A DNA stretch of 42,992 nt from a virus: positions 1 through 42,992 of IMG/VR virus record IMGVR_UViG_3300022665_000250. One strand, given 5' to 3'. The notes under the pieces were generated by a model, which ran no database searches, was not told where the DNA came from, and was given only the letters and a program-made list of their open reading frames with translations. Positions 990 to 35,437 of the stretch are shown piece after piece. Within the stretch, counting starts at the first letter, position 1. Every line of letters begins with the position of its first letter. The position numbers were made by a program, and so were the translations under genes.

Positions 990-1918
990 TGGCGCGTAAG
1001 ACAAAAGAGGATCCAACGGGCCAAGCGCGCAACCGTCAGAAAGGTGCGCGGGCCCTTGTCCGGCGGATTAATAGAGCAGAAATTCAAGTTAAAAAACTGT
1101 TCAGGGCGATACCCAGAGAGCGCAGACGAAAGGTTTCTATTGTCAATCAGGAAGAAACCGTTATTTATGATTACGATATCGACGACCAGGGATTAAGCTC
1201 ATTAGAGATGAGCGTTCTGTTCATTCTCAGCCTTGAATTGCTCCAGACTCAGATAGGCGTTATGCCGTTTGACTGGTTTTGGAAAAAACACATTGAGCCG
1301 GTGTACAGGCAGGGGACAGCGGAGGAGATAAGCCGAATAAATAGACTGATCAATGGCGTGATTGTCGATGGATTGCCGGTGCCCAAAGTGCCCATTGAAT
1401 CAGTATTGCTATCAGAGCCATATCGACAAGCGCTGAACAAGGCGCAGGTGTCTAATTTTTCGTCAATCAAAACATTGAGTGATCGGACCGCGGCCCAGGT
1501 TACGCAACAGCTAAACCTTGGCATTCAGGCTGGCAATACACCGACGGAGATAGCTGGCGTCATTACTGAGCGTTTCGACGTGTCTCGATCCAGTGCTGAG
1601 CGCATCGCTAGGACGGAGGTTAACAAAGCGTATAATGATGCTAAATTGAATGCCGTTGATGTTGCTGCTGAGCAAACTAAGCTTAGGGCGGGGGTAATAC
1701 ATATTTCTGCGTTAATACCGACGACTAGGTCTACACACGCAGCCAGGCACGGCAACGCCTATACTACAGCGGATCAAATGAAATGGTGGAATGAGGGGGC
1801 CAATCGAATAAACTGCTTGTGCAATACTGAGTCAGTATTGATTAATAGGGCCGGAAAAGTGGTTCAAAGCGAGTTTCAAGACAATATCAAATCACAAAGG
1901 GTGTTTTTTGATAATTAA
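989..1918 (+). CDS. head morphogenesis protein, SPP1 gp7 / Mu F family
   Basis: 309-aa ORF after the portal. Contains SAERIARTEVNKAYN and TRSTHAARHGN motifs typical of the Phage_Mu_F domain. Confidence 0.8.
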   Translation: MARKTKEDPTGQARNRQKGARALVRRINRAEIQVKKLFRAIPRERRRKVSIVNQEETVIYDYDIDDQGLSSLEMSVLFILSLELLQTQIGVMPFDWFWKKHIEPVYRQGTAEEISRINRLINGVIVDGLPVPKVPIESVLLSEPYRQALNKAQVSNFSSIKTLSDRTAAQVTQQLNLGIQAGNTPTEIAGVITERFDVSRSSAERIARTEVNKAYNDAKLNAVDVAAEQTKLRAGVIHISALIPTTRSTHAARHGNAYTTADQMKWWNEGANRINCLCNTESVLINRAGKVVQSEFQDNIKSQRVFFDN

Positions 1919-23281: not shown

Positions 23282-23644
23282 TCATTTTTCACAAATACTT
23301 AAAGACTTGCTGTGGATGTTGCCTATTACCTTAATCTTCAAGCGCCTATTGACTATGTCGAATAAAGGGATAAATGATTTTTCAGTTTGTTCAATTCCGG
23401 TTCGTTCAATGGCCCACATGAAATCCACCATTTTTACAATGCCGCGAATTTCCCAATCGTAATCAGCGTCAAAGTGGCTGTTTGAATATGGCTCTTCACT
23501 CCACACAAAGCATTCGTCGTTGCCATAAATCTCGACGCCATCAATATCGGTGAGTCCTGTAAAGATCGCAATGTGCCCGGAGACTGCAAGGGGCTTCATA
23601 ACTTTATACTTTGCGTCCCATGATCTTAGTTTTATTTCGTTCAT
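23282..23644 (-). CDS. YopX-family protein
   Basis: N-terminal KLRSWDAKYKVM and C-terminal KVIGNIH motifs are typical of YopX. Confidence 0.7.
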   Translation of the reverse strand: MNEIKLRSWDAKYKVMKPLAVSGHIAIFTGLTDIDGVEIYGNDECFVWSEEPYSNSHFDADYDWEIRGIVKMVDFMWAIERTGIEQTEKSFIPLFDIVNRRLKIKVIGNIHSKSLSICEK

Positions 23645-25037: not shown

Positions 25038-26144
25038 TCAGTAACTAATATAAACGTTATCGATTATTTTTTTTGCGATAATTGTAATTACTTCCTTCGC
25101 AATCTCTCCGTCTATTCCATTAGCCACTAAGCCATCGACCGCGTCATTGTGAACTTTTGCTCTGCGTTTTTTGTTGCGCTCTCTTTTCTCGGTCTCAAGA
25201 CGGACACACTTAGCTTTCTCTTCGGCTTCGCGCTTCACCCTGGCCTCTGCGTCTATAACCGCCTGTTTTTTCTCTTCTACACGACGCGCTTCCAATATCA
25301 CCGCTTCTTTCTTTGCCTGTTTTTCTCGCTCAACAGCCTCTTTCTTTGCATTTTCAGCTTCACGTTTTGCTATTGCCTCGCGCTCGATAGCCTCCTGCTT
25401 TTCTAGTTCGATACGTTCGGCTTTATCTTCAGCCGCTATGATATCATCTTTCGCCTTTTGCTCAGCCGCCTTGATTTTGAGTTCTGCTTTTTGCTCGGCT
25501 GCCACCCTGGCATCTTCGGCGATCCTCTCTTCACGTTCTTTTTGATCCCTGGCGACTTGTTCTTTTCGCAAGCGTTCTAGTTCGGCTTTCTCTGATTCCG
25601 CCTTCTCTGCCTGCGTGAGAGCGTCCTGGAGATATTGCATCGATATCTTGAATTCACGAGTAGCTTCGGCCATGTATTCGTCGAAAGAATCGTCAGGCTC
25701 AAGATTTTTCAGATCCTCAATGTGATCTTTTATCAACGCGATAGGTGCTGCGTGTAGTGTGATCTGTCTAATGCCGACAATCTCATCGAACCTTTCTTCG
25801 ATTGCGGCCTTCCTTGATTTTTCTTTTTCTTCGATAGCCTTTAACGGCGCGGCGTGGACTTCGATCATTTCTTCAACTTCTGATATGATTTCCCCTGCTT
25901 CAGAATCAACCCGCCTGCCGTAATCCAGACTCGACTTTTTCTCATTTTTCCGCGCGTTATCTATTGCTGTTTTTGTTTTCCGTAGTTGATACACATGAGA
26001 CCTGGCGTCTTTGTTGCCTTTGTCATCTGAGTAATCGAAAACCATACTTGAATTATGTTGTTTTAGTTCGGCCAATTGCGCTCTGAATTTGTCGTAAGCC
26101 GCTATTGGTCGATCAGAATCTATTTGTAGTTCACTCATTTCCAT
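25038..26144 (-). CDS. coiled-coil protein (DUF1351-like), recombination-module associated
   Basis: 368 aa with a long E/K/A-rich helix. It sits next to the exonuclease/annealase pair, as DUF1351 proteins do. Confidence 0.4.
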   Translation of the reverse strand: MEMSELQIDSDRPIAAYDKFRAQLAELKQHNSSMVFDYSDDKGNKDARSHVYQLRKTKTAIDNARKNEKKSSLDYGRRVDSEAGEIISEVEEMIEVHAAPLKAIEEKEKSRKAAIEERFDEIVGIRQITLHAAPIALIKDHIEDLKNLEPDDSFDEYMAEATREFKISMQYLQDALTQAEKAESEKAELERLRKEQVARDQKEREERIAEDARVAAEQKAELKIKAAEQKAKDDIIAAEDKAERIELEKQEAIEREAIAKREAENAKKEAVEREKQAKKEAVILEARRVEEKKQAVIDAEARVKREAEEKAKCVRLETEKRERNKKRRAKVHNDAVDGLVANGIDGEIAKEVITIIAKKIIDNVYISY

Positions 26145-26745
26145 ACCCTAATTCTTTAAGTTGATGCTTTTTTTCTGACATTTTGTCGGTGAAATTTTGT
26201 ATCGCCGCTGATAATAGAGAGATGTATTTGCCATCTCTATTAACTCTGATAATCATTGGCTCAAGAACAGGGTGATATGAAATGAAATCGAACCAATCTC
26301 GCTCTGTTATCCAAAGTGCTCCTTGCACCTGTGGCACATATGTCGATGGTATTTTGTCCGCCATTAAATATTTGACATGGATGCCTGGTTTTGGACATTT
26401 TATTTCTATTCCTCCATCGTCGCCGACCAATCCATCCGGGCTGCACCCTGCAAAGTCGTTAGTAACAAAACCGACCTGATCAACGTCAACATTTTTCTTC
26501 ATCTCGTAAAATGTCCTCGCGCTTTCCTCCAATTCGTGTCCGCGTTCTGTCCACATGTTGCCCTCCCATGACTCCAGGGGCTCGCCCGCCATCCATTCAG
26601 CCAGCAGAGTATTCATGTAGTCGGCAGATTGTGTGGACGCCTTGCCAGTGCTCGTTATTATTTTGCTAAATTCTGATGCCGTCGGAATAGCCAATCTCAG
26701 ATCAAGCCATTCTGGTGAATTTTGTTCAACGTCATGTATTTTCAT
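26131..26745 (-). CDS. YqaJ-type (lambda Exo-like) recombination exonuclease
   Basis: The N-terminal QNSPEWLDLRLAIPTASEFSKI and the PD-(D/E)XK core (DG..GIEIKC) support the call. Confidence 0.8.
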   Translation of the reverse strand: MKIHDVEQNSPEWLDLRLAIPTASEFSKIITSTGKASTQSADYMNTLLAEWMAGEPLESWEGNMWTERGHELEESARTFYEMKKNVDVDQVGFVTNDFAGCSPDGLVGDDGGIEIKCPKPGIHVKYLMADKIPSTYVPQVQGALWITERDWFDFISYHPVLEPMIIRVNRDGKYISLLSAAIQNFTDKMSEKKHQLKELGYGNE

Positions 26746-27485
26746 GATTTTTTCTTCCGTTTTGAAATTAAATCCATCGCACTTTTAAAATAACCCTCTT
26801 GCAAATCCGCCACAGAATTAATTTTGTAATGCTTTAACCACCTGGTTTCATCGATTTCGTGCTCATCTAGCACGGCCACTAGGCTCAACCTTTGCGCTTC
26901 CGATATCATTTTTACGGGATCAGAGCCTCTGCCATCATCATCACTATCCGCCGATGCAAGTCCAGTTGCTGCTAATAATGTGTATCTTTGGAGATAAGTG
27001 ACGGTTGACCCGATAGCCTGTATGCTGTTTTTCCCGCCTGATTGATCGTCATTAGCGCGCATTGATACGCTTTCAGAGTGCCCTAGAGAGTGAGTTACAA
27101 TGCAGGTCACTGTGATAGCGCTATCTTGATTTATGTCCCATCTAAATGACAACCCGTGCTTCGCCATGCCATCACTAATAGCATTAGCAACATGATCTAG
27201 GCTGGCGTGATTGTATTCCGTTTTCCCTTTGTTGGTTTTAAATGAGACATGTTTGTTTTTTCTAATAACAGGCGGGGCGGCTTTAAACGCTGTCATTGCT
27301 ACCACAAAAGCTTTCCTGGCCTCGTTTTTCTCCCATCGTTCCTGCAGATCCATGAGTTGCTGCATTTGCTCTAAGCTCGCGCCTTTATCGATTGCTGTTT
27401 GCAGCATTAACATCGGCGTTACTGTCGGCAAATTGCCATCAGATTTGATCTCTGCCGTTACGATTTCTTTCATTTGCTTGCCCAT
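26742..27485 (-). CDS. ERF-family single-strand annealing protein
   Basis: YNHASLDHV....GLSFRW...VTCIVTHSLGHSES....IQAIGSTVTYLQRYTL follows the ERF pattern. It is paired with the exonuclease gene. Confidence 0.7.
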   Translation of the reverse strand: MGKQMKEIVTAEIKSDGNLPTVTPMLMLQTAIDKGASLEQMQQLMDLQERWEKNEARKAFVVAMTAFKAAPPVIRKNKHVSFKTNKGKTEYNHASLDHVANAISDGMAKHGLSFRWDINQDSAITVTCIVTHSLGHSESVSMRANDDQSGGKNSIQAIGSTVTYLQRYTLLAATGLASADSDDDGRGSDPVKMISEAQRLSLVAVLDEHEIDETRWLKHYKINSVADLQEGYFKSAMDLISKRKKKS

Positions 27486-28035: not shown

Positions 28036-28290
28036 TTAGCCGTCGCCGGAGCCGTCGCCGTAGCCGGAGCCGTAGCCGGAGCCGTCGCCGTAGCCGGAGC
28101 CGTCGCCGTAGCCGGAGCCGTAGCCGTCGCCGTAGCCGTCGCCGTCGCCGGAGCCGTAGCCGGAGCCGTCGCCGTAGCCGGAGCCGTAGCCGTCGCCGTA
28201 GCCGTCGCCGTAGCCGGAGCCGTAGCCGTAGCCGTAGCCGTCGCCGTTATGCAGGCTCACATCAAAAGCGCATAAACTAATTGACTTCAT
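28036..28290 (-). CDS. dipeptide-repeat protein: 15-aa head + G(XG)34, X = Asp(11)/Tyr(14)/Ser(9)
   Basis: The ATG has GGGAG 9 nt upstream and overlaps the end of the upstream gene by 14 nt. It is co-oriented with the operon. Gly is always GGC and X is always GAC/TAC/TCC. Confidence 0.55.
   Translation of the reverse strand: MKSISLCAFDVSLHNGDGYGYGYGSGYGDGYGDGYGSGYGDGSGYGSGDGDGYGDGYGSGYGDGSGYGDGSGYGSGYGDGSGDG
28039..28245. repeat. 34.5 tandem hexamers GCCGNN (NN = TC/GA/TA) on the plus strand
   Basis: Read directly from the sequence. All six frames lack stops, so the ORF track reports ORFs in several frames. Confidence 0.95.
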
Positions 28291-28657
28291 GTATCGGCGC
28301 TCCCTGAATCGATAATCTCGCCATTTCTGTTATGCTTAAAATCTCGCAAGATTCAGGCAATACTACCGTCTGAACCGACGCGGGAATCTTTGATTTATCA
28401 TGCACAATGCCATTTTCAGCGACACCAGATAGGCTATGAGAGTTATTTGCACATTTCCAATAGTAGAGCCTCCGCGAATTAGTTAATACTACCTCGCGCC
28501 CCTCGTAGCTCTTCAGATATCCGGCATGAACACCAGCATCACGACATCGAACAATGACGTATTCTCCGATCATCTCTTTTTCTTTCGGCTGCGGCTGTTC
28601 GGATTTTTCGTCGTCTATAAGCATCATTATTAACCTTTCTAACAATTCTGTTTTCAT
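28277..28657 (-). CDS. conserved phage protein of unknown function (SRRLYYW...LSGVAENG type), first gene of the early-left operon
   Basis: 126 aa. The motif order VIVRCRDAGVHAGYL...EVVLTNSRRLYYW...SLSGVAENG recalls a widespread phage DUF. Confidence 0.6.
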   Translation of the reverse strand: MKTELLERLIMMLIDDEKSEQPQPKEKEMIGEYVIVRCRDAGVHAGYLKSYEGREVVLTNSRRLYYWKCANNSHSLSGVAENGIVHDKSKIPASVQTVVLPESCEILSITEMARLSIQGAPIHEVN

Positions 28658-28684
28658 TTTTGCGATCCCAGTTGATTACTCGAT

Positions 28685-28712
28685 TTGTGGATATACATTA
28701 GCATCGTAAAAT
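28685..28712 (+). promoter_or_regulatory. candidate rightward early promoter
   Basis: TTGTGG, 16-nt spacer, TAAAAT, about 80 nt upstream of the Cro-like gene. Confidence 0.4.
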
Positions 28713-28723
28713 CAACAATGCAA
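28695..28723 (-). promoter_or_regulatory. candidate leftward early promoter
   Basis: On the minus strand: TTGCAT, 17-nt spacer, TAATGT. It is interdigitated with the rightward promoter. Confidence 0.4.
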
Positions 28724-28739
28724 TACCATATGTTGCATT
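28717..28739. promoter_or_regulatory. operator-like inverted repeat AATGCAA-N9-TTGCATT
   Basis: Perfect 7-bp arms. It covers the leftward -35 and the rightward transcription start region. Confidence 0.4.
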
Positions 28740-28794
28740 TATTTTAAAAGTCTGTAAGATTAAATCATCAGTAAAATCACGGAAATACTTACAT

Positions 28795-28998
28795 ATGCGC
28801 ATGACATTGAAAAATTACCTGGATATGGATGGCGTTACTATTAACGCAACGGCACAAACAATGGGGACTACTCGCGAATCTATACGGCGATGGCGTGACA
28901 ATAAAAACCTAGATGTGCTTGTCGTGTTCGATCCTGCCACGGACAAAATATCTCATATTGAGTTAAACCAAACTAAAATCATCAAGGCGAAATCATGA
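28795..28998 (+). CDS. small HTH DNA-binding protein (Cro-like)
   Basis: 67 aa and the first gene of the rightward operon. Contains INATAQTMGTTRESIRRW, a helix-turn-helix-like segment. Confidence 0.55.
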   Translation: MRMTLKNYLDMDGVTINATAQTMGTTRESIRRWRDNKNLDVLVVFDPATDKISHIELNQTKIIKAKS

Positions 28999-29408
28999 CT
29001 AGAAAAGTGCTGTGGAGAGGGCAAACGGATTACGATGACGCGGATGACGACGACTGGGTATACGGGTCGCTAGTAGAGTATTACGGCGATTATAGTATTC
29101 GACAACCCAAATATAATTATGACATCGCTGTTAAATCATCGACCATCGGGCAATTAACTGGCGAGAAAGACGGCGGAGGCAATAGTATTTTTGAGAACGA
29201 TGTTCTGTGCCTTGAGGAGGATTTCAAGCCTCTCTATACAGTCGTGTGGCGCAGGGCAAAAGGGGCGTGGATGGTGATCAATAAAAAAGCAGGAGGGCGG
29301 CCATTCTACCTATGCGATTTCCTGCGTATCAATTCCAGTGCCGTCAATATCGTTGGCAACACCAGCGAGCCAAAATATATTGATTTAATATCAGAGGATG
29401 AGAAATGA
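28995..29408 (+). CDS. YopX-like protein
   Basis: Contains IGQLTGEKDGGGNSIFENDV and a C-terminal IVGNTSEP, following the YopX pattern. This is the second copy in the genome. Confidence 0.6.
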   Translation: MTRKVLWRGQTDYDDADDDDWVYGSLVEYYGDYSIRQPKYNYDIAVKSSTIGQLTGEKDGGGNSIFENDVLCLEEDFKPLYTVVWRRAKGAWMVINKKAGGRPFYLCDFLRINSSAVNIVGNTSEPKYIDLISEDEK

Positions 29409-29851: not shown

Positions 29852-29895
29852 ATTACCAATAAATTACCAGTAAATTACCAGTAAATTAAGGGTGA
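29852..29895 (+). repeat. array A: 11-bp phased tandem repeats ATTACCA(A/G)TAA x3 plus a degenerate unit ATTAAGGGTGA containing the SD
   Basis: Read directly; units start at 29852, 29863, 29874 and 29885. A related copy, ATAATTACCCGG, is at 29827. Confidence 0.9.
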
Positions 29896-30308: not shown

Positions 30309-30319
30309 GAGGAAACGAG

Positions 30320-30384
30320 ATAATTACCGGATAATTACCGGATAATTACCGGATAATTACCGATAAATCACTGATAAATTAAGG
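30320..30384 (+). repeat. array B: 11-bp phased tandem repeats ATAATTACCGG x3 plus three degenerate units ending ATAAATTAAGG (SD)
   Basis: Read directly; units start at 30320, 30331, 30342, 30353, 30363 and 30374. Confidence 0.9.
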
Positions 30385-30740: not shown

Positions 30741-31355
30741 ATGAGTTTTGAAGCGGCCGCTTGGGCCATAAAACAAAAAACAAACAGGCCTATTGAAAAA
30801 TTAATTCTTATCGCTTTATGCGACTGCTATAACAAAAACAATTCAAGATGTGACCCGTCAATAATTTATCTCTCGGAAGTGGCGATATGTTCCGAGCGAC
30901 AGGCGACTAGATCTATCAACCAATTAGTTATCCAGGGATTTATATCTGCCTGTAGAAAAACAGGCAGGAGAACCAATTACAATATCAACTTAACCCCTGA
31001 CTCACAGTCACCCCACCCCCGACTCACAGTCACCCCCACCCCTGACTCACAGTCCAAAACCCCTGACTCACAGTCACCCGAACCAGTAAGAACCATTAAT
31101 TTAACCAGTAAGATACCGATACCAGATTTTATTGATAAAAAAATGTGGTCTGATTTTTTGGAGATGCGGGGAAAGAAAAAGAACTCGGATGTTTCTTTGA
31201 AGCGGATCATCAACGAACTAACGAAATTTGAAGCTAAAGGGATGGATGTGAACCAGGTGCTCAATAACTCAATCATGAGCTCATGGATCGGTGTCTTCCC
31301 AATAAAAGAATTCAAATTAGACAATCAACCACCTGCGAGGATTGTAGGCCGATGA
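30741..31355 (+). CDS. replication initiator (lambda O-like, N-terminal winged-HTH) containing the origin iterons
   Basis: The N-terminus (AAAWAIKQKTNRPIEKLILIALCDCYN...IYLSEVAICSERQATRSINQL) looks like HTH_36-type replication proteins. It lies upstream of DnaB with an ATGA overlap and has an internal 4x repeat. Confidence 0.6.
   Translation: MSFEAAAWAIKQKTNRPIEKLILIALCDCYNKNNSRCDPSIIYLSEVAICSERQATRSINQLVIQGFISACRKTGRRTNYNINLTPDSQSPHPRLTVTPTPDSQSKTPDSQSPEPVRTINLTSKIPIPDFIDKKMWSDFLEMRGKKKNSDVSLKRIINELTKFEAKGMDVNQVLNNSIMSSWIGVFPIKEFKLDNQPPARIVGR
30994..31113. repeat. putative origin: four ~20-bp iterons CCCCTGACTCACAGTCACC(C) at ~22-bp spacing, then AT-rich DNA with 2x AACCAGTAAGA
   Basis: GACTCACAGTC cores at 30999, 31021, 31044 and 31065, each with GACT/AGTC dyad symmetry. 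AACCAGTAAGA occurs at 31081 and 31103. The architecture resembles ori-lambda inside gene O. Confidence 0.55.
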
Positions 31356-34599: not shown

Positions 34600-34944
34600 A
34601 TGAAACCAGAAACAATGATGATTGATGATGTGAAATACGTGCGCGAAGACTCAATAAAAGTATTCGCGCTGCCTGATGGAGATTTTTCTCCTTGGGAAAC
34701 AGGCGAGGAATATCACATCGAAACAGCAACTAAGTATTATCTCGGAAGATTGATACTGGTCACAGACAAGGAATTAGTTGTTGACGGTGCTTCATGGGTG
34801 GCCGATACAGGTAGATTTAACGAGTACCTGAGCGGAAGCAACCCAAGCGAGAATGAACCCTACCAAAAAGGATCGGCGCTGATAATTAGTAGAGGCGCAT
34901 TGGTCTCGGCAGTTAAACGCGAAATCATAATTGAGGTTATCTGA
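34600..34944 (+). CDS. conserved phage protein of unknown function (ASWVADTGRF type)
   Basis: 114 aa. YYLGRLILVTDKELVVDGASWVADTGRFNEYLSG...EPY recalls a widespread phage DUF. Confidence 0.6.
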   Translation: MKPETMMIDDVKYVREDSIKVFALPDGDFSPWETGEEYHIETATKYYLGRLILVTDKELVVDGASWVADTGRFNEYLSGSNPSENEPYQKGSALIISRGALVSAVKREIIIEVI

Positions 34945-35180
34945 TGAACGCCGTGATGCTGCGAGAAGGTTATTTAGGGTCTGGGTCTAGGTCTTGGTCT
35001 TGGTCTGGGTCTAGGTCTGGGTCTAGGTCTGGGTCTAGGTCTGGGTCTAGGTCTTGGTCTGGGTCTGGGTCTGGGTCTGGGTCTAGGTCTGGGTCTAGGT
35101 CTGGGTCTAGGTCTTGGTCTGGGTCTAGGTCTGGGTCTAGGTCTTGGTCTTGGTCTGGGTCTGGGTCTAGGTCTGGGTAA
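34944..35180 (+). CDS. dipeptide-repeat protein: 11-aa head + (XS)33-G, X = Gly(17)/Arg(11)/Trp(6)
   Basis: The ATG overlaps the upstream stop (TGATG), with GAGG 7 nt upstream. It is co-oriented with the operon and followed by a terminator. The frame choice remains uncertain because other frames are also open. Confidence 0.5.
   Translation: MNAVMLREGYLGSGSRSWSWSGSRSGSRSGSRSGSRSWSGSGSGSGSRSGSRSGSRSWSGSRSGSRSWSWSGSGSRSG
34977..35177. repeat. 33.5 tandem hexamers NGGTCT (N = G 17, A 11, T 6, C 0)
   Basis: Read directly from the sequence. Four consecutive GGGTCT units at 35061-35084 form a G3N3 quadruplex motif on the plus strand. Confidence 0.95.
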
Positions 35181-35183
35181 ACG

Positions 35184-35210
35184 AAAAAGCCCCAAATTAA
35201 TGGGGCCTTT
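35184..35210 (+). terminator. rho-independent terminator
   Basis: AAAAA-GCCCCA-aattaa-TGGGGC-CTTTAA, starting 4 nt after the stop of the repeat ORF. Confidence 0.55.
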
Positions 35211-35362: not shown

Positions 35363-35437
35363 AAAGGAGAGTGCACAACGGTGGTAGTGCAGCGGGGCGC
35401 ACCCGTACTGGAGGTTCGAATCCTCCCTCTTTTTCCA
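35363..35437 (+). tRNA. tRNA-like gene with canonical acceptor, D and T arms and encoded CCA, but a truncated anticodon arm (possible pseudogene or decoy)
   Basis: Acceptor AAAGGAG/CTCTTTT (one G.T pair). D arm TGCAC-N10(GG)-GTGCA. T arm GGAGG-TTCGAAT-CCTCC. Discriminator T followed by CCA. The anticodon region CGGGG-CGCA-CCCG is about 4 nt too short for a 5-bp stem plus 7-nt loop. Confidence 0.45.

Follow-up and report, generated by a model that had tools for sequence, protein, structure and literature searches.

Proteins of the Sm/LSm fold carrying low-complexity extensions have been described in several settings. In Borg extrachromosomal elements, Sm ribonucleoproteins carry fast-evolving, perfectly in-frame amino-acid tandem repeats that form disordered regions (PMC9879509), and the Hfq of Acinetobacter has a Gly-rich, repetitive C-terminus (PMC5663733). 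Eukaryotic SmD1, SmD3, SmB and LSm4 likewise appear to bear cationic tails built on Gly-Arg repeats, which may mediate multivalent contacts and assembly. In phages, the T4 GoF/MotB.1/Frd.2 family comprises early proteins recognised as LSm-like only through structure prediction, with a suspected RNA role (PMC12152347), and in a plant glycine-rich RNA-binding protein (RRM fold, not Sm) the Gly-rich tail contacts its own RRM (PMC4117745). Here we analysed a 42,992-nt phage sequence (IMGVR_UViG_3300022665_000250, hereafter the window), in which a 126-aa gene is followed by an overlapping ORF of strictly alternating Gly-X, and found that this arrangement is a widely conserved gene pair whose first member is predicted to have an Sm/LSm fold.

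In eukaryotic Sm proteins the tail appears to be fused to the core, cationic, short and evolutionarily stable, whereas the phage polymer is a separate, coupled ORF that is anionic (A type) or cationic (B type), 35-158 aa long and hypervariable, and the phage cores lack Sm1/Sm2 motifs. The extension of Hfq is fused and is not a strict dipeptide repeat, and we found no sequence similarity between the phage partner and Hfq. The Borg repeats are N-terminal fusions of 4-17-aa units in archaeal elements whose Sm proteins retain the canonical motifs, while the unit here is 2 aa, in a separate ORF of bacterial phages. No repeat polymer partner is described for the T4 GoF family, and there is no sequence relationship to it. 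Among repeat polypeptides outside the Sm fold, the Ser-Asp repeats of staphylococcal Clf/Sdr adhesins, to which polymer B gave weak NCBIfam hits, seem to be stalks inside large LPXTG-anchored surface proteins rather than free 8-kDa cytoplasmic polypeptides. The C9orf72 hexanucleotide-encoded dipeptide repeats, which include Gly-X and Arg-containing species, probably arise from aberrant, non-canonical translation, and the Gly-Ala repeat of EBV EBNA1 is probably internal to a large protein; neither is paired with an Sm-like gene.

Table 1. Features of the two cassettes in the window
Positions	Strand	Feature	Properties
28277..28657	-	Partner gene A	126-aa DUF6948 protein, predicted Sm/LSm-like small beta-barrel; first gene of the leftward gene block
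28036..28290	-	Polymer gene A	84 aa; 15-aa head MKSISLCAFDVSLHN and (Gly-[Tyr/Asp/Ser])34.5; net charge -11, 7,996 Da, pI 4.05
28037..28247	-	Hexamer array A	(GGC-KMC)x34.5; GC 0.758
28300..28304	-	Shine-Dalgarno-like GGGAG	9 nt upstream of the polymer A ATG (28290..28288), inside the end of partner gene A
28658..28794	.	Intergenic region	Between the leftward block and the divergent HTH gene 28795..28998(+); presumed early regulatory region (inferred)
34600..34944	+	Partner gene B	114 aa, no Pfam family, conserved WVADTGRF motif, predicted Sm/LSm-like fold; net charge -8
34944..35180	+	Polymer gene B	78 aa; head MNAVMLREGYL and ([Gly/Arg/Trp]-Ser)34; net charge +11, 7,975 Da, pI 12; ATG overlaps the partner's stop (TGATG)
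34977..35178	+	Hexamer array B	(DGG-TCT)x34
35189..35206	+	Terminator-like hairpin GCCCCAAATTAATGGGGC	9 nt after polymer gene B; consensus scan only

We first re-examined the array itself, and the first-pass annotation, which had described a short head followed by 69 residues of alternating Gly-X, proved correct in every detail. All 35 Gly codons of polymer gene A are GGC, and X is encoded by TAC (14), GAC (11) and TCC (9). TRF detected both arrays, with scores of 282-285 for array A. A six-frame scan of all 42,992 bases for runs of at least 8 dipeptide repeats revealed only arrays A and B, and array A forms a sharp GC island in a window of GC 0.442. The polymer ORF overlaps partner gene A by 14 nt in its +1 frame. 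Since five of the six frames are open across the array, the sequence alone cannot indicate which frame, if any, is used, and we turned to related loci to settle this question. HTH hits to the divergent gene were weak, a strict sigma-70 and terminator scan found nothing around cassette A, including no promoter in the intergenic region, and Rfam and ARAGORN found nothing in the window.

The partner of polymer A was assigned to Pfam DUF6948 (PF22253, E 1.2e-27, 96.3 bits against a cut-off of 27; relatives score 72-117 bits), and has 677 homologues, clustered at 90% identity, none with an informative name. The first-pass annotation had proposed asking whether homologues of this gene are regularly followed by Gly-X ORFs. 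As it turned out, a DUF6948 gene is followed directly by one or more Gly-X ORFs in 44 of 46 informative related loci, comprising 16 IMG/VR contigs (14 distinct sequences), 12 GenBank phage records and 18 of 20 informative MAG/genome contigs from many phyla. The two remaining genome contigs are L033 (L numbers denote related loci), where the genome collection masks the stretch with N but Gly-X flanks remain, and L039, which keeps a 12-aa remnant. X is Ser, Tyr or Asp in about 85% of cases.

Notably, only the Gly-X frame is conserved among these loci, while the nucleotide unit is not. The repeat is GGC-TAC/TCC/GAC in the window, GGA-TAT/TCT/GAC in L001 and GGT-based in L025; the dominant Gly codon is GGC in 33 loci, GGA in 4 and GGT in 3. 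Degenerate arrays (L002/L010, L007 and L012) keep Gly-X while mixing all four Gly codons and losing DNA periodicity. Across arrays X is Ser 530, Tyr 423, Asp 364 and Phe 76 times, but Ala only 10 times of about 1,500, although GCC is one mutation away from both GAC and TCC, and Ser is encoded by TCC, TCT and AGC. All 36 A-type polymers are net negative, with a median charge of -8 and a median length of 70 aa. These data indicate that selection acts on the protein. They also bear on the published reading of an array of the identical kind in Iodobacter phage phiPLPE, (KMGCCG)35 at 46,046-46,255, which was described as a GC-rich repeat and speculated to be a novel att site (PMC3391216). The GC island and the arithmetic openness of five frames would suit a non-coding attachment site, recombination hot spot or iteron-like array. 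However, the ORF begins at the partner's stop, apart from Ralstonia phage NK-7 and L043, which have a gap and their own ATG; in the window it has an SD motif and ends in a stop right after the array; and the cassette occurs in phages with no integrase nearby. We therefore consider a non-coding DNA repeat very unlikely.

The hexamer period had led the first-pass annotation to suggest that slippage would change the array length without breaking the frame, and this prediction holds. Eight Pectobacterium/Dickeya phages carry arrays of 162 to 270 nt that all differ by multiples of 6, with the same head, tail and frame. Ymer, Amona and Taid have 99.7-100% identical partner DNA but arrays of 222, 204 and 258 nt with a different order, and L004 and L005 also differ from each other. 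The array grows, shrinks and reshuffles by hexamer slippage or recombination without leaving the frame, and selection keeps the composition (Gly, Ser, Tyr, Asp; net negative charge) but not the order, although the rapid reshuffling could be neutral. Megablast of the region against GenBank phages gave no match.

The same comparison speaks to whether the array acts as RNA. The repeated mRNA could be a platform bound by the Sm-like protein, in the manner in which TRAP binds spaced GAG/UAG triplets or Hfq binds (ARN)n, with translation being incidental, given that Sm-fold proteins typically bind single-stranded RNA. Both array types carry GG every six bases, and the array A mRNA is less structured than all 200 shuffles (z = +6.07), so it would be accessible as single strand. 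Some features hint at nucleotide-level constraints: only C-ending codons are used in an AT-rich phage, and in B arrays 90% of X codons are NGG, so that R/G/W is exactly one codon box. On the other hand, Gly is kept through three codons in A arrays, and Ser/Tyr/Asp through TCC/TCT/AGC, TAC/TAT and GAC/GAT; in B arrays Ser is kept through TCN and AGC, which share no bases. In addition, the charge sign of the encoded polymers is invariant, B polymers have a conserved non-repeat N-terminal peptide, and the A and B RNAs have opposite folding behaviour. A function at the RNA level hence seems unlikely.

The first-pass annotation also took the array to be an expressed, translationally coupled gene rather than an intergenic simple repeat. 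The comparison supports this reading, and we regard a real coding gene in a conserved pair as highly probable, although expression is inferred and not observed, and independent, coupled translation is only plausible, on the basis of the SD motif and the overlap. Gene callers treat the ORF inconsistently; it is unannotated in phiPLPE, and the Gly-Arg frame was called in L029. Alternatively, the polymer could be appended to the partner as a C-terminal tail by programmed frameshifting in the overlap, since it is out of frame with the partner in 29 of 30 loci and low-complexity tails on Sm proteins have precedent (PMC9879509). Nevertheless, the required shift is +1 in 22 loci and +2 in 7, NK-7 and L043 have a gap, an SD motif precedes the ATG in the window, and no slippery heptamer is evident in the overlap. 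No natural fusion of partner and polymer was found when we looked among long homologues, and none exists among hundreds of proteins, making this explanation highly improbable.

To gain insight into the partner, its predicted structure was compared with known folds. The AF2 model of partner A (pLDDT 94.6) has the strand order b1-b3, an insert, then b4-b5, and its 50 best Foldseek PDB matches are all Sm/LSm (E 1e-3 to 8e-3; TM normalised to the target of 0.45-0.73, to the query about 0.4). The similarity is at the fold level only. No Pfam LSM or Hfq hit was obtained at E <= 0.1, single-sequence and profile searches of PDB sequences gave no credible match (the only hit was ribosomal protein L21 at E 0.14), and the only trace in sequence is a sub-threshold Pfam SM-ATX hit (E 0.034) in the Ymer homologue. 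A BFVD fold search returned only DUF6948 and uncharacterised phage proteins. An Sm-like fold of the partner is accordingly likely but rests on a predicted model.

Interestingly, the window holds a second, mirror-image cassette, which the first-pass annotation had not seen. Partner B gave no Pfam hit, but its AF2 model (pLDDT 83.3) has Sm/LSm proteins as top Foldseek PDB hits, with TM normalised to the target of 0.7-0.8. Its family has 1,920 representative clusters at 50% identity. In at least 70 of 79 related loci it is followed by (X-Ser)n with X = R/G/W and a conserved head, MNAA[IV][LM]RTGFD, with Ser kept through TCG, TCA, TCT and the unlinked AGC codons, and all 78 B-type polymers are net positive. 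Homology between partners A and B was not established by sequence, as pairwise BLAST found nothing and hhalign gave 3% probability; only the shared predicted fold and shared N-terminal modules link them. The polymer type follows the core domain and not these interchangeable N-terminal modules, which argues for a specific core-polymer relationship. B is not an obligate companion of A, since no B-type array was found in the whole genomes of the A-type phages phiPLPE, IKEMa6-1 and Setonix.

The statement of the first-pass annotation that no function was known for such a protein also holds. Literature searches found no papers on DUF6948 and no description of this cassette, and the Ymer-genus paper does not mention the repeat. 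PHROGs, NCBIfam and PADLOC gave nothing useful for either cassette, and Pfam hits of polymer A itself (TrAA12, KRTAP) are compositional and below threshold. Recombination genes (RecT, Sak, ERF, YqaJ, PD-(D/E)XK and NinB) recur within 2.5 kb downstream of A cassettes, frequently but far from universally. A Gly-rich RiPP or microcin precursor such as McbA is not supported, because the neighbouring genes are the Sm-like partner, an Erf protein, a YqaJ exonuclease and small unknown ORFs, and no modification or export enzymes were found in 58 downstream proteins from related loci and the window.

The first-pass annotation had offered a silk-like beta-sheet or an acidic disordered polymer. Strict Gly-X alternation, with 35 consecutive alternating Gly, recalls what is probably the defining feature of the crystalline region of Bombyx fibroin; the NK-7 homologue was annotated in GenBank as 'fibroin heavy chain-like protein', and the 14 GYG triplets resemble motifs that may characterise FUS-type hydrogel-forming domains. 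However, about a quarter of X residues are Asp, giving a net charge of -2 to -22 in all 36 polymers, and like charges on one sheet face oppose packing at neutral pH. Ala, apparently the main X residue of fibroin, is almost absent, the head has no signal-peptide features, and length and order are unconstrained. A structural cross-beta polymer is thus improbable, and polymer A is more probably disordered, a single-sign polyanion with about one aromatic 'sticker' per seven residues.

The acidic polymer could instead be a stand-alone decoy that blocks a host restriction or defence protein or nuclease in the manner of Ocr, ArdA or Gam, with the Sm-like protein only stabilising or chaperoning it. 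Its place with the first gene of the leftward early block, where anti-restriction and host-takeover genes might be expected by analogy with lambda and T7, its charge, the variation between near-identical phages expected of an arms race, and the very wide host range would fit. Known DNA mimics, however, are folded, sequence-specific scaffolds, whereas this polymer is 42% Gly with a scrambled order; no PADLOC, PHROG, NCBIfam or Pfam link to defence or anti-defence was found, and the idea does not explain the cationic sister cassette. We regard it as unlikely.

Taken as a whole, our preferred explanation, which remains tentative in its full form, is that the repeat is the coding body of a genuine phage gene forming an obligate two-gene module with the gene upstream. 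The functional part of this model is a more doubtful inference: the pair may work as a 'split Sm protein plus low-complexity tail', in which the Sm-like core, perhaps an oligomeric ring, is the docking or nucleic-acid-binding part, and the polymer is a multivalent flexible partner that mimics, or competes with, single-stranded nucleic acid, or drives higher-order assembly. Tandem two-domain relatives of partner B (proteins P0179, P0190 and P0307) are compatible with oligomeric rings but do not prove them. The pair would act on RNA/ssDNA transactions or on host nucleic-acid-binding proteins right at the start of infection, just upstream of the Erf/exonuclease recombination genes of the phage, and the second cassette would be the cationic, nucleic-acid-binding counterpart of the same design. 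A more speculative and improbable possibility is that phages encode a previously unrecognised class of genetically hypervariable, sequence-defined polyelectrolytes, each escorted by its own Sm-fold protein. Polymers A and B, similar in mass and opposite in charge, would then be a matched pair that neutralise each other or co-condense through Arg/Trp-Tyr/Asp contacts, building or dissolving an intracellular condensate, or timing an activity, as the two operons are expressed.

These pairs would add a widespread, wholly uncharacterised gene-pair architecture to phage biology, with hosts ranging from Proteobacteria to Patescibacteria and culturable carriers in the Pectobacterium Ymer group, Iodobacter phiPLPE and Ralstonia NK-7. 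They have been missed because annotation pipelines skip these ORFs or call them in the wrong frame and one genome collection masks the stretch; moreover, neither polymer would be seen by tryptic proteomics, as polymer A has no Lys or Arg after residue 2 and polymer B would be cut into di- and tetrapeptides. The finding corrects the published reading of the phiPLPE repeat as a possible att site. It provides a natural example of proteins selected for composition and charge rather than sequence, evolving by in-frame slippage, and suggests that phages use Sm-like cores with detachable low-complexity partners, in parallel with Sm tails in eukaryotes and tandem-repeat Sm proteins in Borgs.

Inspection of the ORF singled out in the first-pass annotation confirmed that it encodes MKSISLCAFDVSLHN followed by 69 residues of strictly alternating Gly-X, in which all 35 Gly codons are GGC and X is TAC (14), GAC (11) or TCC (9), giving 34.5 hexamers. 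TRF scored the array at 282-285, and a six-frame scan of the whole window revealed only this array and one other of the kind. A GGGAG motif lies 9 nt before the ATG, and the ORF overlaps the upstream gene by 14 nt. However, five of the six frames are open across the array, so the sequence alone cannot tell coding from non-coding.

The window is a complete 42,992-bp JGI contig of a tailed phage, in which the 126-aa upstream gene is the first of a leftward block (coordinates of all features are collected in the table). Behind it come the polymer ORF, a 132-aa acidic ORF, a 50-aa ORF, an Erf-type annealing protein and a YqaJ-type exonuclease, and an HTH gene is transcribed divergently. The earlier assignment of the ORF to an early-left operon is thus a reasonable inference from the layout rather than a demonstrated fact; a strict promoter scan found nothing. 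Three sets of short direct repeats lie in the rightward early region, and the 23-mer array among them lies inside an ORF with an HTH_36 domain, just upstream of the DnaB-type helicase gene, in an iteron/origin-like arrangement. The same phage also carries two YopX-domain genes on opposite strands.

Coordinates of the repeat cassettes and neighbouring features in the window and in related loci
Sequence	Coordinates	Strand	Feature
Window	28036..28290	-	Polymer ORF A (Gly-X)
Window	28037..28247		Hexamer array A
Window	28277..28657	-	Partner gene A, 126 aa, DUF6948
Window	26742..27485		Erf-type annealing protein
Window	26131..26745		YqaJ-type exonuclease
Window	from 28795		HTH gene, divergent from the leftward block
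Window	28995..29408 and 23282..23644		Two YopX-domain genes
Window	29852..29888, 30319..30377, 30993..31079		Three sets of short direct repeats: an 11-mer x3.4, an 11-mer x4.5 and a 23-mer x4
Window	30741..31355		ORF with HTH_36 domain
Window	34600..35206		Second cassette: partner gene B, polymer ORF B and terminator-like hairpin
Window	34600..34944		Partner gene B, 114 aa
Window	34944..35180	+	Polymer ORF B (X-Ser)
Window	34977..35178		Array B
Window	35380..35432		tRNA-like fragment
Window	35410..35426		T-arm of the tRNA-like fragment
Iodobacter phage phiPLPE	46,046-46,255		(KMGCCG)35 array
L017 (phiPLPE locus)	1164..1409		ORF unannotated in GenBank
L033	1526..1629		Array masked as N
L029	3376..3525		Gly-Arg frame chosen by a gene caller
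L029	4097..4156		Extra array
L040	4878..5159		Extra array
L043	2828..4459		Tandem Gly-X genes
L012	3264..4669		Degenerate Gly-X copies
L002	4371..5091		Degenerate Gly-X copies

To examine whether the pairing is conserved, we searched for relatives of the upstream gene, which belongs to Pfam DUF6948 (E 1.2e-27) and has 677 homologous clusters, none with an informative name. Three sets of loci were collected: 16 IMG/VR viral contigs (14 distinct sequences); 12 GenBank phage records, comprising Iodobacter phiPLPE, eight Pectobacterium/Dickeya phages of the Ymer group, Ralstonia NK-7, Vibrio IKEMa6-1 and an uncultured podovirus; and 21 genome/MAG contigs from Alpha- and Gammaproteobacteria, Chloroflexota, Binatia, Patescibacteria, Cloacimonadota, Fibrobacter, Planctomycetes, Bacteroidales, Acidobacteria and Gracilibacteria. 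Of 46 informative loci, 44 have one or more Gly-X ORFs starting at or just after the partner's stop; the first-pass annotation had proposed to check whether homologues are regularly followed by such ORFs. In the genome contig L033 the collection masks the stretch with N, but the flanks read ...DNG / GYGDG, and in L039, next to a HigB/HigA pair in a bacterial chromosome, only a 12-aa remnant is left. Some relatives carry several polymer genes: locus L043 has eight tandem Gly-X genes, each starting MATNRGYG, loci L002 and L012 have three to six degenerate ones, and L040 and L029 have extra arrays 0.7-2 kb downstream. The possibility that the polymer is appended to its partner by a ribosomal frameshift is very unlikely, being weakened by the polymer lying in the +1 frame in 22 loci and +2 in 7, by its own ATG after a gap in NK-7 and L043, and by the absence of fusions among the homologues examined.

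Comparison of these loci indicated that the array is very likely protein-coding in the Gly-X frame. The nucleotide unit is not conserved: the dominant Gly codon is GGC in 33 loci, GGA in 4 and GGT in 3, Tyr is TAC or TAT, and Ser is TCC, TCT or AGC. Divergent loci mix all four Gly codons within one ORF and barely register as DNA repeats, yet they keep Gly at alternate positions. Over all arrays X is Ser 530, Tyr 423, Asp 364, Phe 76, Thr 29, Asn 26, His 17, Cys 15, Glu 12 and Ala 10; Ala, Asn and His are one mutation away from the common codons but are rare, which shows selection on composition. All 36 polymers are net negative, with a median charge of -8 and a median length of 70 aa, whereas the alternative frames (Ala-Thr/Pro and Arg-Leu/Arg here; Met/Leu-Asp and Trp-Ile in the related locus L001) are not conserved. 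Notably, the array of phiPLPE, which has exactly 35 Gly codons as here, was listed as a GC-rich repeat and speculated to be a novel attachment site (PMC3391216), and the above data essentially exclude such a non-coding DNA element. Databases treat these ORFs inconsistently: one genome collection masks the array, one gene caller chose the Gly-Arg frame and GenBank leaves the phiPLPE ORF unannotated.

The first-pass annotation had also pointed out that slippage would change the length of the array without breaking the frame, which proved correct. In the Ymer group the partner gene is 89-100% identical at the DNA level, but the polymer ORF is 162, 204, 222, 222, 222, 252, 258 or 270 nt, and all differences are multiples of 6. 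The head (MSKLIKPEKYG) and tail (GEG) are constant, while the order of S, Y, D and F is scrambled. Ymer, Amona and Taid have 99.7-100% identical partners yet different arrays, and the related loci L004 and L005 also differ.

An AlphaFold2 model of the partner built on 65 homologues (pLDDT 94.6) gave Sm/LSm chains as all of its 50 best PDB matches, with E 1e-3 to 8e-3 and TM normalised to the target of 0.45-0.73, and a large insert sits between strands 3 and 4. At the sequence level there is no LSM or Hfq signal, although one relative gives a sub-threshold SM-ATX hit, and the viral structure library returned only DUF6948 and unnamed proteins. We therefore describe the partner, with good though not full confidence, as having a predicted Sm-like fold and not as an Sm family member.

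Interestingly, the other array found in the six-frame scan belongs to a second, mirror-image cassette. Its polymer ORF has the head MNAVMLREGYL followed by ([Gly/Arg/Trp]-Ser)34, encoded by (DGG-TCT)34, and its ATG overlaps the stop of a 114-aa gene. The 114-aa protein has no Pfam family but belongs to a large family with 1,920 representative clusters, 243 IMG/VR loci and a conserved WVADTGRF motif, and its model (pLDDT 83.3) again hits Sm/LSm first, with TMt 0.7-0.8 and rmsd 1.4-3 Å. In at least 70 of 79 related viral loci it is followed, usually through an ATGA overlap, by an ORF with a conserved head MNAA[IV][LM]RTGFD and (X-Ser)n, and SD-like motifs precede 31 of 55 of these starts, against a 20% background. 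Depending on the tally, X = R, G, W is 504, 460, 426 or 612, 512, 530. The Ser codon is TCG, TCA, TCT or AGC depending on the phage; these are two unlinked codon families, so Ser is selected as an amino acid. In the window all variation is synonymous in the +1 frame, which reads as a perfect (Gly-Leu)34, but that frame has no start codon and changes to Gly-Gln/His, Gly-Arg or Gly-Ala in other phages. All 78 polymers are net positive, with a median charge of +8, and the related loci L027 and L028 share flanks but differ in the array. About 230 nt downstream of array B lies a tRNA-like fragment with a perfect T-arm (GGAGGTTCGAATCCTCC), which ARAGORN and Rfam do not call as a gene; it could be a tRNA remnant or an attP core. 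No integrase was identified among the ORFs scanned.

The two cassettes appear as variations on one design, although sequence homology between the partners is not demonstrable (BLAST found nothing and hhalign gave 3% probability). The partners share the predicted fold as well as interchangeable N-terminal modules: MKPETMMIDDVKYVRED occurs on the window's B partner and on bona fide DUF6948 proteins (loci L023, L025 and L026; Pfam E 1e-20 to 1e-30), and MNIxDLTIGQxKE occurs in both families. The polymer type follows the core domain and not the N-terminal module, which argues for a specific core-polymer relationship. Some relatives of partner B (P0179, P0190 and P0307) are tandem duplications, with two Sm-like cores in one chain of about 210 aa. 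Partner B is acidic (-8 here, family mean -3.2) and its polymer is basic, while partner A is roughly neutral. In this window the two polymers are near mirror images, with 84 aa, -11 and 7,996 Da against 78 aa, +11 and 7,975 Da, and both would escape tryptic proteomics. The whole genomes of phiPLPE, IKEMa6-1 and Setonix carry only the A type, and B is therefore not an obligate companion of A.

A role at the RNA level keeps some weight but is unlikely. Both arrays carry GG every 6 nt, and in B arrays (loci L061-L139 and the window) 90% of X codons are NGG, so that R/G/W is exactly one codon box. Array A uses only C-ending codons (GGC, GAC, TAC and TCC) against the genome's bias, giving GC 0.758 in a phage of GC 0.442, and the preference for GGC in 33 of 40 related arrays holds whatever the genome composition. 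The mRNA of array A folds worse than all 200 shuffles (z = +6.07), whereas array B folds far better than shuffles (z = -5.37).

DUF6948 is already catalogued, and one annotator labelled a homologue of the polymer 'fibroin heavy chain-like'. No description of the gene pair, its conservation, the Sm-like fold, the cationic sister family or any function was found in the literature. As the only ties to known systems are a fold-level resemblance and analogies, we consider the cassette to lie outside known kinds, while its function is still a hypothesis. Precedents for an RNA-binding core with a low-complexity region include Hfq C-terminal domains (PMC5663733), Borg Sm proteins with tandem-repeat disordered regions (PMC9879509), T4 LSm-like early proteins (PMC12152347) and plant glycine-rich RNA-binding proteins whose Gly-rich tail contacts its own RNA-binding domain (PMC4117745); the Arg-Gly dipeptide tails of SmD1, SmD3 and SmB, and LSm4, would be a further case.

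Taken as a conserved and very likely coding gene pair, the cassette has as predicted products a small Sm-fold protein and a single-sign, Gly- or Ser-spaced polymer with about 14% aromatic residues, on which selection acts through composition and charge and not through order or length. We infer that the two genes are translationally coupled and that their products act together. With 42% Gly, no hydrophobic core and a scrambled order, the polymer is expected to be disordered. A silk-like or amyloid scaffold is unlikely; a stand-alone anti-defence decoy is likewise unlikely, though less so. In an extended chain the X side chains should lie about 6.8 Å apart on one face, probably close to the phosphate spacing of single-stranded nucleic acid, and an Asp/Tyr/Ser polymer is therefore a plausible mimic or competitor of ssRNA or ssDNA, while an Arg/Trp polymer is a plausible binder. 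The frequent neighbourhood of RecT, Sak, Erf, YqaJ, PD-(D/E)XK and NinB genes fits the model proposed below but does not prove it. We tentatively propose that the pair works as a 'split Sm protein plus low-complexity tail' acting on RNA/ssDNA transactions or on host nucleic-acid-binding proteins at the onset of infection.
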